From a virus: 35,465 nucleotides of DNA. The stretch is taken from the UHGV virus genome UHGV-1465456; one strand, 5' to 3'. The position numbers and the translations under genes are program-made. Numbering within the stretch: position 1 is the stretch's first letter; every line of letters begins with the position of its first letter. Shown piece after piece: positions 24,159 to 29,859 of the stretch. The notes beneath the pieces are model-generated. The model was not told the origin of the DNA and did not search any database. It worked only from the letters and a program-made list of their open reading frames with translations.

Positions 24159-25066
24159 GATCTGCTCCTGTAACTATCCCATGTAAACGCAAGAGTGCAC
24201 CCTCCGCCATCATTCATCCTGTCAATAACACGCTCACCAATGAATGCCGAAAGTTCATCTTTGCTCTGATTACTAATCAGGATTGTTGGCTTCATGTATT
24301 CATATCTGGTGTTGATAATTTCGAACATGATTAGCTTTTCAGCATCACTGCCGAACTGCACGCCAACCTCATCGATTATTAACAAGTCAGGATGCGTAAA
24401 TTGCCTAATGACTTCTTCTTCAGTTCTGGTTGCGGCCTTAGACCATGTTGATTTGTACTCTCTGGCAATTTTCAACGCAGTGGTAAATATCACAGAGCTT
24501 TGATGCTCGATAATGGCGTGCCTAGCGATAGCCAGTGCAAGGTGGTTCTTTCCAGTTCCAGGCTTACCACACATGACCAGTCCGCCACCTTTTTGAAGGC
24601 GTTCAGGCCACTTACTGGCATATGCCTGGCATACCTTAAGAACTCGCTTTGCATCATCGTTAACAGGCTCATAATTCTGAAGAGTGCAATTTTTGAACCT
24701 CTCTGGAATATTGAGAGAATTCAACAAATATTCAATTTTTGATTGTCTTGCTCTTTGTTCTGCCTGCTCACGTTCAATCTCTTTCTTACGAATTTTCTCC
24801 TCAAGGCACTGTGGGCACTCAGATTTACTTGAAGTAATTCTTTTTCCTGAGATGGTCAGATATTTCTCATAGGAAGTATATTTACCGTGTTTCTCGCACT
24901 CTTCCACTGTGCTGGTAACTGACATTCCATCTGATACTGATCCAATTTTGCTAAACTCAAGTTTCTGTTTCAGATCAGAAATGTCATTGATTTTTGAGTC
25001 TACAAGTTGCCTTTGCAGTGCCAGATTGTAACCATTTGTCGTATTCATATTCACTCCTGCGCCCAT
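24155..25066 (-). CDS. DnaC-like replicative helicase loader (AAA+ ATPase with N-terminal Cys cluster)
   Basis: Walker A CGKPGTGKNHL, Walker B LLIIDEVG; position downstream of O. Confidence 0.8.
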   Translation of the reverse strand: MGAGVNMNTTNGYNLALQRQLVDSKINDISDLKQKLEFSKIGSVSDGMSVTSTVEECEKHGKYTSYEKYLTISGKRITSSKSECPQCLEEKIRKKEIEREQAEQRARQSKIEYLLNSLNIPERFKNCTLQNYEPVNDDAKRVLKVCQAYASKWPERLQKGGGLVMCGKPGTGKNHLALAIARHAIIEHQSSVIFTTALKIAREYKSTWSKAATRTEEEVIRQFTHPDLLIIDEVGVQFGSDAEKLIMFEIINTRYEYMKPTILISNQSKDELSAFIGERVIDRMNDGGGCTLAFTWDSYRSRS

Positions 25067-25920
25067 GAAGGCATTTCAGTTTGCCCGTAATCTTTGGCGG
25101 CAAAGTTTTCCTGCATAGCTCGCTGCTGCGGCCTCGGTTGAGATTTCCCCTTTGGAGTCTTGGGTTCAAAAATCCCCTGCCAACCACTGGCGATGCTCTG
25201 GTTTATAATTTCTTCAGGTGTATATCCCTTCTCCAGACTTCTGCTTAGAACGTTGATAGCCTGAGTGACGCTTTGCTTAGACTTGATCGACTTACCTATC
25301 TCCTTGCGATAGGTAACCCACGACAACCATGTTTCTGCCGATAACCAATCAGGCAACTCTGTTTCTAGCGGGTCGAACTTCTGAGAAATTTTTTTGGGGG
25401 ATATAGGGGGTTTATTAATATTTTCTTTTGTCTTTAAAGAATGTCTTTTGTGTGTCTCTAACTTCGAGACATTGAGTGTCTCTAACTTCGAGACATTGAG
25501 TGTCTCTAATTTGGAGACATTTTTTGTCTCTAACTTCGAGACAAAGTTGCTAACTTGGAGACACTTGCTGAATTGCCACGCAGATACCTCCCTGTTTACA
25601 CCGATTTGATTTCCATCCATAAACAGGCAATTCATTGAAATCAGTTCTTTTTTAGCCTTGTTAACATTCTGCCTTGATAGTCCTGTTAACTGAGCAATTT
25701 GCTCATCGGCTATTCGATCTGTTTTCTTATTGAATCCATATGTTTTCCGGACGTAGGCCAGCATAACTTTCAACTGGCGAGCGGTTAAATCGGCACTTGC
25801 GATAGCTTCCAGCAGCTCGTTAGCGAATCTGGTGTAACCATCATCGATATCAGCCACTCTTAGCTCCTGTTCGGCAAAGTTACCTCTGCCGAAGTTGAGT
25901 ATTTTTGCTGTATTTGTCAT
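25051..25920 (-). CDS. O: replication initiator protein O-like, with ori iterons inside the gene
   Basis: Peptide repeats VSKLETxNVSKLET encoded by iterons; lambdoid position after cII. Confidence 0.75.
   Translation of the reverse strand: MTNTAKILNFGRGNFAEQELRVADIDDGYTRFANELLEAIASADLTARQLKVMLAYVRKTYGFNKKTDRIADEQIAQLTGLSRQNVNKAKKELISMNCLFMDGNQIGVNREVSAWQFSKCLQVSNFVSKLETKNVSKLETLNVSKLETLNVSKLETHKRHSLKTKENINKPPISPKKISQKFDPLETELPDWLSAETWLSWVTYRKEIGKSIKSKQSVTQAINVLSRSLEKGYTPEEIINQSIASGWQGIFEPKTPKGKSQPRPQQRAMQENFAAKDYGQTEMPSWAQE
25430..25570. repeat. replication origin iterons (four to five copies of GTCTCTAACTTCGAGACA-like units) with adjacent AT-rich region 25385..25430
   Basis: Direct repeats read in sequence; each unit is itself an inverted repeat. 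Confidence 0.75.
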
Positions 25921-26252: not shown

Positions 26253-26334
26253 TTGTTAAATTCCTAGAGTGTTAAATAGTTAAATAGGCCAATGTGCAGA
26301 CACGCATAGCCTTTAAGACTTGTTGTTTTGAATC

Positions 26335-26367
26335 GCCCTTTTTCAGGGCTTAGATGTGATAAGAGCG
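26335..26367 (-). promoter_or_regulatory. nutR: boxA CGCTCTTA and boxB hairpin GCCCTGAAAAAGGGC on minus strand
   Basis: Exact lambda-like boxB and boxA read as reverse complement immediately downstream of cro. Confidence 0.75.
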
Positions 26368-26375
26368 GGTGTTAC

Positions 26376-26591
26376 TTAGGCTGCGCTGGTAGTTGGTGGG
26401 AAAACGTCATCAAGGGAGCAATTGCAACCGAGACGGTTCAGGCCCTCGACAATAAGGCGACTTTCCGGCAGACCAGGGGTGCGGATATCAAGCTCATAAT
26501 TGGCAATTCGCGACTGCCCCCAGCCTATGGCAGAAGCCAGAGCGGCTTGCGAAATCCCAATTTTTTTTCGCTGCTCTGCAATGTTGTTCAT
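26376..26591 (-). CDS. cro: Cro-like HTH repressor (71 aa)
   Basis: Small HTH protein (GISQAALASAIGWGQSRI) divergent from cI across an operator region. Confidence 0.7.
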   Translation of the reverse strand: MNNIAEQRKKIGISQAALASAIGWGQSRIANYELDIRTPGLPESRLIVEGLNRLGCNCSLDDVFPPTTSAA

Positions 26592-26599
26592 ATCAACCT

Positions 26600-26690
26600 C
26601 CAGTGGTTAGATGAATTAATTATTCACGATATGTGATTAACTGTCAACACCATATTGTGTAGATACCACAATCACATGGCGTGATATTAT
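26600..26690. promoter_or_regulatory. oR/pR/pRM region with three operator-like inverted repeats (TCAC-N5-GTGA type)
   Basis: TCACGATATGTGA 26624-26636, ACACCATATTGTGT 26647-26660, ATCACATGGCGTGAT 26671-26685 between divergent cro and cI. Confidence 0.6.
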
Positions 26691-26696
26691 TGAGGC

Positions 26697-27344
26697 ATGA
26701 AAACTATGCATGAAATTATCGGCGAGAGGATAAAGTCCCTTCGCGAAGCTAAAGGACTCAGCCAAGCAAAGTTAGCCAACCTTTGCGGCTGGGGTGCGCC
26801 TTCACGACTGGGGAATTATGAGCTTGGCACGCGAAAAGTTAGCGCTGATGATGCGTTAACGCTTGCTGAGGTTCTTAAGGTGTCTCCTTCGCTTATTCTT
26901 TTTGGCGAAGACAATGGGCCAGTATTCCAGAAATTTGAGTACCCGGTTTTCTCGCATGTACAAGCTGGTATGTTCTCACCTGAATTTCGCACATTCACCG
27001 AACGTGATGCAGAGAGATGGGTAAGCACGACAAAGAAAGCCAGCGACAATGCATTCTGGCTTGAGGTTGAAGGCCATTCCATGACGGCTCCTGCTGGTTC
27101 AAAGCCTAGCTTCCCTGAAGGAATGCTAATTCTTGTAGATCCAGATGAACCGGTTGACCCTGGTGATTTCTGTATCGCCAGATTAGGTGGCGATGAATTC
27201 ACGTTTAAGAAACTGATCAAGGACAGCGGGCAGATATTTCTCCAGCCATTGAATCCTCAATTCCCCATGATGCCGTGTAATGAGCACTGTCGGGTTGTTG
27301 GTAAGGTTGTTGCGTCACAGTGGCCTGAAGAGACGTTTGGGTGA
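26697..27344 (+). CDS. cI: CI repressor: non-lambda HTH N-terminus with lambda-like LexA/S24-type C-terminal domain (start may be second ATG at 26706)
   Basis: C-terminal half nearly identical to recalled lambda CI ([13 protein letters not shown]...[16 protein letters not shown]...[15 protein letters not shown]). Confidence 0.85.
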
Positions 27345-27437
27345 TAAGAGAATATCTGATAGTAGGCGTGGTTACTTTGCTCTCGGTTGTTGCGATCGTG
27401 CTTATGGTGGCCTGATGAGACGTTTGGGTGATGAGAG
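27321..27437. repeat. 30-bp direct repeat (2 mismatches) duplicating the 3-prime end of cI, copies at 27321-27350 and 27408-27437
   Basis: TGGCCTGA[A/T]GAGACGTTTGGGTGAT[A/G]AGAG read twice, first copy containing the cI stop codon. Confidence 0.7.
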
Positions 27438-27507
27438 GTCAAGCTCTAATGGCTTGCGATAATCAACGGACAATTTTTCTAATTTATATTAAAATAAGGG
27501 ATGTTCA

Positions 27508-28350
27508 ATGAGTAAGTTTGGGTGTGATATGAGTAGGCAAATTACCGTTTTCGATGACGCATCACAGTTAACATTTGATGATTTCGCCAGGGAGAATGGT
27601 GTTACCTATTGGTTCGCATCTGATCTGGCGATGATGCTTGGGTATAATGGTATGGACCAGATACTAAAAGCCATCAACAAGGCAACGTCTGTATGCGTTA
27701 ACCTTGATATCCCCGTCTACGACAACTTCATTCAGATGCCTTCTGAGAATGCGCAAAATGACTTTAAATTAACTCGATTTGCTTGCTATTTAACTGTAAT
27801 GAATGGCGATATTAGCAATCAGAAAGTTGCAAATGCTCAGGCATACTTTGCTGGTCTGGCAGCAGAAATTCAAGCGGCGTATCATAACCATGATGCAGTT
27901 AACCGAGTTTATTTGCGTGGTGAAATCACTTCAAGAGAAAAGACTCTTAGCCACGTGGCACATAAGCATGGCGTAGTAGACTATGGTCTTTTTCAAAATG
28001 CAGGATATCGCGGGATGTACAACATGAATCTCACGCAATTGAAAGCCCGCAAAGGACTAACTAAAAAAGATGGAACAATGCTTGATTTTATGGGCAGCGA
28101 AGAACTTGCTGCTAACATTTTCCGAATAACACAAACAGAAGCAAGAATAAGAAACCAGAATCTTAAGGGGCAGGTGCAACTTGAAAATGCCGCTGAAACA
28201 GTTGGAAGATCTGTTAGAAATGTAATGATTGCCAACACAGGAACGGCACCTGAGAGTATTAAGTTGTCTCAAGATAAAATTCAAAAAGTTAGAAGCAGTA
28301 TCAAGAAAACACACAAAGCACTAGTAAAGCACGATAAGAAGAAGCCTTAA
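27508..28350 (+). CDS. DinD-like protein (DNA-damage-inducible protein D family, Bro-N-like N-terminus), 280 aa, in the rexAB-equivalent slot
   Basis: Recalled similarity to E. coli DinD (RFACYLTVMNGD; FMGSEELAANIFRITQTEARIRN); RBS AAGGGA; same strand as cI. Confidence 0.6.
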   Translation: MSKFGCDMSRQITVFDDASQLTFDDFARENGVTYWFASDLAMMLGYNGMDQILKAINKATSVCVNLDIPVYDNFIQMPSENAQNDFKLTRFACYLTVMNGDISNQKVANAQAYFAGLAAEIQAAYHNHDAVNRVYLRGEITSREKTLSHVAHKHGVVDYGLFQNAGYRGMYNMNLTQLKARKGLTKKDGTMLDFMGSEELAANIFRITQTEARIRNQNLKGQVQLENAAETVGRSVRNVMIANTGTAPESIKLSQDKIQKVRSSIKKTHKALVKHDKKKP

Positions 28351-28356
28351 TAGTGA

Positions 28357-28379
28357 CCCGGCCATCGCGCCGGGTTTTT
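28357..28379 (+). terminator. rho-independent terminator ending the cI/DinD-like transcription unit
   Basis: Hairpin CCCGGC-CATCGC-GCCGGG followed by TTTTT. Confidence 0.7.
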
Positions 28380-28602
28380 ACTGTCCTTTCCTCACGAACT
28401 CCGCAGCATCCCTCAGCAATCCCTTGTGAATAACATTACCCACCGCCCTCCTCTTGGTCTCCAAGCTATCCACAATCGCATCCCTATTAATCACCACCCC
28501 GCCGATAATCAACTCAACAACCGCGCCGCCAATCTCGCCAGCGATGAAAGCTGCGCGGTCTTCCAGCAGTTCATCCCTACCCATATCCATTCCCAGCCCC
28601 AT
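28378..28602 (-). CDS. possible small hydrophobic protein (74 aa) antisense between terminator and oL; doubtful
   Basis: ORF with plausible composition and hydrophobic segment, but strong strand compositional skew and an overlapping plus-strand ORF make the call uncertain. Confidence 0.25.
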   Translation of the reverse strand: MGLGMDMGRDELLEDRAAFIAGEIGGAVVELIIGGVVINRDAIVDSLETKRRAVGNVIHKGLLRDAAEFVRKGQ

Positions 28603-28669
28603 AACAATGCCCTCTTTGATGTTTTTCTGAGCATATCACGTTTTTTTGAAATTATTTACCCCACTAAAA

Positions 28670-28745
28670 ACATACACATATCGTGTGATAAATAAATTAT
28701 ACACATATCGTGATTGACATTTAAATCACAATGCGTGAATATTGC
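28670..28745. promoter_or_regulatory. oL/pL region: operator-like inverted repeats and pL (-35 TTGACA 28714-28719, -10 near 28737-28742)
   Basis: CAC-N5-GTG type sites at 28675-28687, 28702-28712, 28726-28738; downstream transcript start resembles lambda pL leader (ATCAGCAGGACGCAC). Confidence 0.6.
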
Positions 28746-28782
28746 TCCATCAGCAGGACGCACTACTCACCAGGACGGTGAA

Positions 28783-28812
28783 GCTCTTAAAAATCTGGCG
28801 CTGAAAAAGCGC
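28783..28812 (+). promoter_or_regulatory. nutL: boxA-like GCTCTTAAAAA and boxB-like hairpin GCGCTGAAAAAGCGC
   Basis: Motifs read in pL leader upstream of N, matching the lambda nut arrangement. Confidence 0.65.
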
Positions 28813-29080
28813 AGCATTCAAAGCAGAAGGCTTTGGGGTGTGGTGAAGCCAGCTAGTCACTGGCAAGTGCTTACCTACTGTTGAGCGGTGAAGAGCTCCC
28901 AACGCTAGCAATAGCGTGGACGAGATGGGGAGCCGCGGGCGATAAGGCCGCCATAACGCGCACGTTGTCGCATGGAAAAATCGCTGGGGTGCCGGTTATA
29001 CCCCTCCGAATGAGACTCAACAAGCTGGAGCTAGACTACCAGCCACCACACCACCAAAGCTAACTGACAGGAGAATCCAG

Positions 29081-29407
29081 ATGGATGCACAAACACGCCG
29101 CCGCGAACGTCGCGCAGAGAAACAGGCTCAATGGAAATCAGCAAATCCCCTGTTGGTTGGGGTAAGCGCAAAACCAGTTAACCGCCCTATTCTCTCGCTG
29201 AATCGCAAACCGAAATCACGAGTAGAAAGCGCACTGAATCCGATAGACCTTACGGTACTGGCTGAATACCACGAACAGATTGAAAGCAACCTGCAACGTA
29301 TTGAGCGCAAGAATCAGCGCACATGGTACAGCAAGCCACGCAGTGAAATGGGTGTGACTTGTGTTGGTCGCCAGAAAATGAAATTAGGCAGCAAACCACT
29401 TATTTGA
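29081..29407 (+). CDS. N: antitermination protein N
   Basis: Near-identity to recalled lambda N (MDAQTRRRERRAEKQAQWK...). Confidence 0.9.
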   Translation: MDAQTRRRERRAEKQAQWKSANPLLVGVSAKPVNRPILSLNRKPKSRVESALNPIDLTVLAEYHEQIESNLQRIERKNQRTWYSKPRSEMGVTCVGRQKMKLGSKPLI

Positions 29408-29415
29408 GGTGAGAT

Positions 29416-29859
29416 ATGAGTACTAATGGATGGTATTACCTGCATAAAAATGGTGATCTTATTTATAAGCCATCACCAGATGCAATTATTGATATTCGTG
29501 ATTCTGATTTAGCGGTTTGCTCATGGCCATTAGATGTTAGCAGCCGTAAAACTGCATGGGACATTCTGGTTGAGTCCATGGCTCTTGGTGCCAACAAAGA
29601 GCGCGTTAATGAGCTGGCTAGCAAATGGAATTGCAATGATGATGACGCTGATAAATATGCAGAGGTCGTTGGCGTGACAATCGAGTTAGATGGAAACGCT
29701 TGGTGTGCACACGCTCATAATTTTGTTGATTTACAGGAATCTCCTGCTGGATTCGGCAATACCAAGCTTGAGGCGATGGCTTCTCTTGCTGAGCAACTTG
29801 GTTTATCAGGCGGCCACATGTGGAGAAGTTCATTTTCTGATTTGGTTAAGGCCGCATAG
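29416..29859 (+). CDS. hypothetical protein (147 aa) directly downstream of N
   Basis: ORF with short spacing after N; stop codon lies in loop of a terminator hairpin. Confidence 0.5.
   Translation: MSTNGWYYLHKNGDLIYKPSPDAIIDIRDSDLAVCSWPLDVSSRKTAWDILVESMALGANKERVNELASKWNCNDDDADKYAEVVGVTIELDGNAWCAHAHNFVDLQESPAGFGNTKLEAMASLAEQLGLSGGHMWRSSFSDLVKAA

Follow-up and report, generated by a model that had tools for sequence, protein, structure and literature searches.

A DinD-family gene behind the cI-type repressor of a prophage occupies the rexAB slot and is a candidate exclusion factor

The genes that lie behind a prophage repressor, such as rexAB and bstA, are classic lysogen-expressed exclusion systems. 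In phage lambda, rexA and rexB are expressed together with cI in the lysogen; RexB resides in the membrane, and Rex acts through membrane depolarisation. In the virus genome UHGV-1465456, a stretch of 35,465 nucleotides (nt) referred to here as the window, the corresponding position is held by one open reading frame (ORF) of 280 amino acids (aa), which starts with ATG, extends over 27508..28350 on the plus strand and encodes a member of the DinD family. Escherichia coli dinD has been known as an SOS gene since the 1980s and has no clear role. The bstA gene of the Salmonella prophage BTP1 lies downstream of cI and has a terminator of its own; its expression in lysogens is high, and its product contains a KilA-N-like domain (PMC8585504). 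Defence-type cargo behind cI, the DinD family, its status as a candidate in PADLOC and the presence of DinD homologues on mobile elements are already on record. What appears to be new is the documentation that one DinD clade recurs in the rexAB slot, without a promoter of its own, in many immunity types.

The DinD-like gene follows a cI-type repressor gene (26697..27344, plus strand), the first gene of the proposed operon, whose product contains a helix-turn-helix (HTH) domain (Pfam HTH_3/HTH_31) and a Peptidase_S24 domain (E 1.1e-26), with a C-terminal domain close to its counterpart in lambda cI. The plus strand of the window corresponds to the leftward direction of lambda, the replication genes and cII being on the minus strand. 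In an alignment with phage lambda, homology spans the last ~60 nt of cI and ends just past the stop codon, at the point where lambda continues into rexA, and the DinD-like gene therefore lies literally in the rexAB slot, from right after the cI stop to the terminator before oL. Operator repeats with motifs of 13-17 nt are common to 26621-26684 and 28667-28741; the matching motifs at both ends place the DinD-like ORF inside the immunity region. The occupants of the slot differ: lambda carries two genes where the window carries one, there is no sequence similarity between them and, unlike RexB, the prophage protein is soluble with DNA-binding-type domains. A search for near-identical DNA in collections of phage and E. 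coli genomes gave no record that covered at least 80% of the region 26300-29450.

The assignment of the 280-aa protein to the DinD family, in the broad sense, rests on homology that is significant over both of its domains. A BLASTP comparison with DinD (also PcsA) of E. coli K-12 gave 34% identity over 258 residues (E 2e-44), with residues 30-270 aligned to DinD residues 17-273, and the NCBIfam DinD model NF008573 matched over profile positions 12-286 of 288 (E 4.5e-57). The two proteins are collinear over their full lengths, similar in size (280 aa, and 274 aa for DinD) and alike in their two-domain layout. The original prediction, made from the letters of the DNA, had called the protein DinD-like, and the model and protein searches bear this out. 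Both of the conserved segments that it named are found in the alignment, as LTRFACYLTVMNGD against LSRYACYLVVQNGD in DinD and as FMGSEELAANIFRITQTE against HMGSTELAANLFRATQTE, and its Bro-N-like N-terminus is matched by Pfam Bro-N (PF02498) at residues 29-110, with 33.0 bits against a gathering threshold of 25.6. In PHROGs the protein belongs to phrog_8036, a family of unknown function. At E<=1e-5 there are 2227 homologues, and at E<=1e-10 the family comprises 3208 representatives at 50% identity, of which the clade of the prophage protein makes up a single one.

Membership of this family does not make the gene a copy of the SOS gene. The score against NF008573, 193.6 bits, does not reach the equivalog cut-off of 242 bits, while K-12 DinD itself scores 488.1 bits. 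A LexA box (CTG-N10-CAG) was not found in the spacer at 27345-27507, whereas the positive control, K-12 dinD, has a perfect one, CTGTATATAAATACAG, 45 nt upstream of its start (L003 7700-7715); control of the prophage gene by LexA is thereby ruled out. The settings also differ, E. coli dinD being chromosomal, between yicC and yicG, and the prophage gene standing behind cI. With a score below the equivalog cut-off and no LexA box, the gene is, by sequence, a paralogue of the DinD family under other control and not the orthologue of E. coli dinD.

How the gene would be transcribed can be read from its two flanks. The spacer between cI and the DinD-like gene (27345..27507, plus strand, 163 nt) holds a copy of the cI 3' end, a weak promoter-like match and a Shine-Dalgarno sequence, AAGGGA at 27496-27501, 6 nt upstream of the ATG. 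No terminator-like site was found in it, and its predicted fold is no more stable than that of shuffled sequence (z-score +0.81). The gene is followed by an intrinsic terminator (28355..28384, plus strand) with the stem CCCGGCC/GGCCGGG at 28355-28376, formed by eight pairs of which six are G-C, a T-run next to it, a folding energy of -17.6 kcal/mol and a z-score of -3.84. The original prediction had placed the gene in the rexAB slot and had it followed by a clean rho-independent terminator before oL. The first claim agrees with the position of 27508-28350 between cI and oL on the cI strand as well as with the lambda alignment, and the stem and T-run confirm that a strong terminator of this type is present; what the prediction left out is that a 74-aa ORF on the opposite strand (28378-28602) also sits before oL.

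The same arrangement is seen in related loci. Among 54 loci in which the gene is adjacent to a repressor, terminator-like hairpins occur in the spacer of three and within 150 nt downstream of the gene in 43. In ten enterobacterial loci the upstream sequences diverge and conservation sets in at the ribosome-binding region, ~30 nt ahead of the ATG; at the other end, the stem of the terminator is invariant, its loop is variable and homology ceases just after the hairpin. Since the conserved cassette extends only ~30 nt upstream of the ATG, there is no conserved -35 element. A conserved promoter belonging to the gene itself was considered and rejected: the only conserved upstream block is these last ~30 nt, with a -10-like TAAAAT ending 13 nt before the ATG, and because a transcript starting from TAAAAT would miss the Shine-Dalgarno sequence, the block is read as a ribosome-binding region rather than a promoter. 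Co-transcription of cI and the DinD-like gene, as the original prediction proposed, is thus probable and has good support from comparative evidence. We infer that the unit is a mobile, promoterless cassette composed of a ribosome-binding site, an ORF and a terminator, which would use the transcription of whichever repressor precedes it.

The extent to which the clade keeps this position was assessed in 80 viral contigs and 80 species-representative genomic loci encoding relatives, with repressor linkage counted in the 76 viral loci that had enough upstream sequence and in 67 genomic loci. Of the 76 viral loci, 47 have a repressor of the S24 type on the same strand no more than 300 bp upstream, and the number rises to 62 at distances of up to 1 kb; these repressors form 16 clusters at 40% identity, and Pfam Peptidase_S24 was confirmed in 45 of 74 distinct ORFs immediately upstream. 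The exact 280-aa protein is found behind three cI genes (215, 219 and 237 aa) in regions whose cro, N and replication modules differ. It occurs unchanged in many assemblies, and a public collection lists it in 175 indexed blocks. A prophage of E. coli E2348/69 encodes a 95% identical protein (gene E2348C_RS05280, protein WP_000032717.1) in the same layout behind a cI with a different DNA-binding domain, and the Pasteurella phage Pmp14 encodes a 68% identical one behind a CI-like repressor. The lysogeny module of a streptococcal phage satellite carries a homologue flanked by a repressor-like gene and the integrase gene; the repressor beside it has an HTH domain and no S24 domain, and some of the viral loci also have repressors without S24.

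In the genomic loci, repressor linkage was found in nine of 67, all of them nearer relatives with 48-69% identity (Pasteurellaceae, Neisseria, and methylotroph or methanotroph lineages). Linkage as a property of the whole DinD family was therefore rejected, as only the closest clade is linked; repressor linkage is, from these comparisons, a trait of the close clade, covering Enterobacteriaceae, Pasteurellaceae, Neisseria and some methylotrophs. The neighbours of the distant homologues are mixed: housekeeping genes and transposases are among them, and restriction-modification (R-M) components form a minority.

The slot also holds other genes. In some Neisseria-type viral contigs (L042, L043, L045, L049, L052, L057 and L058), a 191-aa ORF without a Pfam match lies between the repressor and the DinD-like gene, in a gap of ~650 bp, and a 327-aa protein with a P63C domain is often encoded next on the same strand (L046-L048, L052, L053 and L055). 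From these insertions it follows that the slot can hold more than one cargo gene. Related immunity regions carry different cargo in the slot, for example proteins with an NYN or a PIN domain (phage ev099, strain TUM1880) or hypothetical proteins (HK542, HK244). The site behind cI is a hotspot at which the cargo varies.

The composition of the gene and the pattern of its variation set it apart from its surroundings. Its G+C content is 40.5%, against 50% for the window. The ratio of nonsynonymous to synonymous substitution rates (dN/dS) is 0.014 in comparison with the E2348/69 allele and 0.047 with a closer allele; the proteins of the alleles are 92-99% identical and their synonymous sites are saturated. 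The ORF is intact in all 80 viral and 80 genomic loci examined. Foreign composition combined with such strong constraint argues that the gene is functional. The gene is immunity-region cargo: compositionally foreign, held under strong purifying selection and passed among many immunity types. In the spacer, a degenerate 31-nt copy of the cI 3' end at 27407-27437 forms a direct repeat (D2) with 27320-27350, 94% identical. The copies encode ...WPEETFG-stop and correspond to the last ~30 nt of cI. The E2348/69 locus does not have the extra 87 bp, and another locus (L006, 3873-3940) has several cI remnants. These copies look like scars of repeated recombination, and the conserved 3' end of cI seems to act as a junction at which immunity modules are exchanged.

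Of the described exclusion systems, BstA offers close parallels in organisation. It too is encoded by a single gene directly behind cI with its own Rho-independent terminator, is ~300 aa long, pairs a DNA-binding domain of KilA-N/Bro-N type at the N-terminus with a second domain in which no effector motif is known, and occurs behind diverse prophage repressors (PMC8585504). The C-terminal domains, however, are different and no sequence relationship was detected: the prophage protein had no BstA or KilA-N match in PADLOC at E<=0.01 (a BstA model in the version used was not verified), and in Pfam it matched Bro-N only. For BstA, defence activity and the self-immunity element aba have been demonstrated, whereas the DinD-like gene is a candidate.

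A connection to defence also comes from PADLOC, in which the protein matches the PDC-S13 model PDLC04919 over profile positions 8-280 of 281 (E 6.1e-85) and two further PDC-S13 models more weakly. Genes entered the PDC set as candidates because they lie within R-M, BREX or DISARM loci; the match to PDC-S13 is strong at the level of the protein, but the gene described here stands in a prophage repressor operon. A further model, PDLC03083, describes a type I R-M specificity subunit of 717 positions, the first ~280 of which align with the whole protein (E 8e-40), implying that natural fusions of DinD-like proteins with HsdS exist. A dinD-domain gene has also been placed within a type I R-M operon (PMC9881135). 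Among the immediate neighbours of 73 distant genomic homologues (111 proteins), each R-M model had at most four matches, to a type III methyltransferase, type IIG enzymes and type I enzyme-methyltransferase components. In the literature, no experimental work on this class of DinD-like prophage genes was found, and neither was the term PDC-S13.

A confident AlphaFold2 model built on 49 homologues, with a mean predicted local distance difference test score (pLDDT) of 88.9 and a predicted template-modelling score (pTM) of 0.81, has an alpha/beta domain at the N-terminus and a helical domain at the C-terminus, joined by a long helix. The charge is split between the two, with a net -6 for the N-terminal Bro-N domain and +14 for the C-terminal domain; the domain charges of E. 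coli DinD are less polarised. When the model was compared with crystal structures, the predicted fold resembled solely DdrC of Deinococcus, with similarity over both domains. A sequence search of solved structures gave nothing meaningful. In a library of viral structures, the top match was to an unnamed protein (E 8.6e-06, 131 columns); other matches, to proteins annotated as KilA-N, 'regulatory protein', 'repressor domain' and 'antirepressor', had E >0.001 and covered mostly the N-terminal domain, and all matches in this library had TM-scores of ~0.4 or lower.

DdrC is a damage-induced, domain-swapped dimer whose N-terminal domain is an acidic winged helix and whose C-terminal domain is made of four helices, and it binds and compacts DNA (PMC9303277, PMC11347143). 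It recognises and traps DNA nicks and breaks (PMC11347143), and its acidic domain has been suggested to be a surface for protein interaction rather than for DNA binding (PMC9303277). Deinococcus radiodurans DdrC and the prophage protein share an acidic, winged-helix-type N-terminal domain, a helical C-terminal domain and a similar division of charge (PMC9303277), and DdrC is, like E. coli DinD, induced by DNA damage. No homologues of DdrC outside Deinococcus are known according to PMC9303277 and PMC11347143, and a literature search found no paper connecting DdrC with DinD; the match in fold appears to be new. The resemblance is a lead rather than an established homology; it suggests a mechanism, the recognition of nicks and breaks, and a wider protein superfamily. 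In its boldest form, DinD, the prophage clade and DdrC would make up one superfamily that senses lesions or DNA ends, placed repeatedly in the repressor operons of temperate phages and satellites as a single-protein defence recognising the ends, nicks or recombination intermediates of incoming phage DNA. We regard this extension as doubtful; if true, it would provide a first physiological role for the DinD family, a context for DdrC beyond Deinococcus and a new mechanism of defence without an effector.

The reading that we favour, with a rough probability of 0.45, is that the gene encodes a protein which is made in the lysogen, binds unusual DNA structures and hinders a superinfecting phage in its replication or recombination. 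The transcript would arise by read-through from the promoters of the repressor gene, PRM in the lysogen and PRE during establishment, and the protein would therefore be made whenever repressor is made. In the lysogen it would bind unusual DNA structures such as the ends of a superinfecting phage genome, nicks, or replication and recombination intermediates; an alternative target, after E. coli DinD, would be RecA-coated duplex DNA. Binding would then block replication or recombination of the superinfecting phage, and the protein would act as an exclusion or defence factor, a functional analogue of RexAB and especially of BstA. Exclusion of other phages and an influence on induction had both been put forward in the original prediction, as candidate functions. 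As a recurrent occupant of the slot, the DinD cassette is a concrete and easily tested defence candidate, a 95% identical copy being present in the well-studied strain E2348/69, and it may offer a route to a function both for DinD and for the PADLOC candidate PDC-S13.

Several observations weigh against an exclusion function of this kind. PDC-S13 has the status of a candidate defence system only, and the characterised relatives are limited to E. coli DinD, a chromosomal SOS gene cited as a regulator of RecA and not as a defence gene. Domain searches, including Pfam, recognised no nuclease, toxin or other effector domain in the protein, and the literature yielded neither expression data nor a phenotype for the gene or its close relatives. 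The distant homologues are mostly stand-alone genes in unremarkable neighbourhoods. The likeness to DdrC is not matched in sequence, as DdrC was absent from the results of a HMMER profile search of all Protein Data Bank sequences, even at E<=10, and global superposition was poor, with TM-scores of 0.34-0.47 and a high root-mean-square deviation; these low scores are consistent with a different orientation of the domains but do not amount to proof of homology. As for expression, the gene may have a promoter of its own at 27467-27495, where a weak promoter-like match agrees at 9 of 12 positions, although such matches are near chance here (seven found, 4.5 expected), and Rho-dependent termination within the 163-nt untranslated spacer is possible.

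The main rival would turn the protein from other phages to the lysogen itself. As a tuner of lysogeny or recombination, it would destabilise RecA filaments on duplex DNA and so limit recombination in the lysogen, with related prophages or incoming DNA as partners, or damp spontaneous induction; the benefit would be to the prophage and not a matter of defence against other phages. Its appeal lies in DinD being the sole characterised relative, collinear over its full length at 34% identity, and one which, in work by Uranga et al. of 2011 as cited by others, is said to be a RecA regulator that inhibits postsynaptic filaments, a property known for E. coli DinD only, although conservation of a RecA interaction at that level of identity is unproven. 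DinD reportedly did not inhibit LexA cleavage, which would argue against control of induction. Most loci do pair the gene with an S24 repressor of the kind that RecA can cause to be cleaved, but the pairing is not specific to S24, as the HTH-only repressor of the streptococcal satellite and the S24-less repressors of some viral loci make clear. The same idea has been put forward for streptococcal islands, in which the DinD homologue is an accessory 'indel' and the authors speculated on a control of recombination (PMC4129442); in a pneumococcal island, however, deletion of the dinD-like gene failed to explain the effect of the island on transformation (PMC10602874). Since it also leaves the embedding of the family in R-M, BREX and DISARM loci unexplained, we consider this account improbable, if less so than those that follow; were it correct, the gene would show how a prophage adjusts the recombination of its host.

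The Bro-N domain invites a reading as a regulator or antirepressor, since such domains are found in antirepressors and regulators of phages. The protein would bind the repressor or another regulator of a competing prophage or satellite, or else specific DNA sites so as to alter host or phage transcription, which would amount to lysogenic conversion of a regulatory kind. The Pfam match above its cut-off and the weak structural matches to KilA-N, regulatory, repressor-domain and antirepressor proteins point this way, as does the suggestion that the equivalent acidic domain of DdrC is a protein-interaction surface (PMC9303277). Yet those structural matches all lie above E 0.001 apart from the top one, none exceeds a TM-score of about 0.4, and most are confined to the N-terminal domain, while the C-terminal domain is specific to DinD and differs from the ANT and KilAC domains found in known antirepressors. 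A constitutive antirepressor made alongside a repressor would have no obvious logic, and we think it quite unlikely that this is what the gene provides. Least probable is that the gene is a selfish or neutral passenger, linked to the recombination-prone 3' end of cI and hitch-hiking with immunity regions without a meaningful phenotype. The cI remnants beside the cassette do point to repeated recombination at this junction, and no phenotype is known. But purifying selection on the protein is strong (dN/dS 0.014-0.047 with saturated synonymous sites), which makes a passenger unlikely; in addition, the ORF is undamaged throughout the 80 viral and 80 genomic loci, the identical protein recurs in the 175 indexed blocks, and the ribosome-binding site and terminator are conserved with it.

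The rest of the immunity region is organised around the repressor and the DinD-like gene. Upstream and divergent from the repressor lies a cro-like HTH gene (26376..26591, minus strand), taken from the ORF list, whose equivalent in loci with the identical DinD-like protein matches Pfam HTH_3/HTH_31 (L168). Between the two, the oR region (26619..26690) contains operator repeats, PR and presumably PRM; the inverted repeats I2, I3 and I8 are common to oR and oL, and the promoter scan identified PR as TTGACA-17-AATAAT on the minus strand (26647..26619). Beyond the cassette, oL (28667..28743) comprises three operator repeats, as seen from the repeats D3, I2 and I3, together with PL, TTGACA-18-AATATT on the plus strand at 28714-28743 by the same scan. 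The first gene of the PL operon, at the far edge of the immunity region, encodes the antiterminator N (29081..29407, plus strand; Pfam N36, E 5.7e-26).

The 74-aa ORF between the terminator and oL (28378..28602, minus strand) is a conserved hypothetical gene (phrog_3975, E 2.1e-36) convergent with the DinD-like gene, and is a neighbour that does not clearly belong to the unit. It has homologues in phages SW-37, HK225, phi80 and HK639, has a G+C content of 53.8% and accompanies the cassette in five loci (L167-L171). A minus-strand promoter-like site at 28696-28725 (TTTAAA-18-TATAAT, 10 of 12 positions) overlaps the oL operators and faces this ORF, away from PL; it could be a divergent promoter controlled by the repressor, comparable to PRM at oR. 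Outside the immunity region, an O-like replication initiator ORF (25051-25920, minus strand) encodes four tandem copies of a peptide repeat (NVSKLET...), which presumably reflect origin iterons within the gene, as in lambda O.

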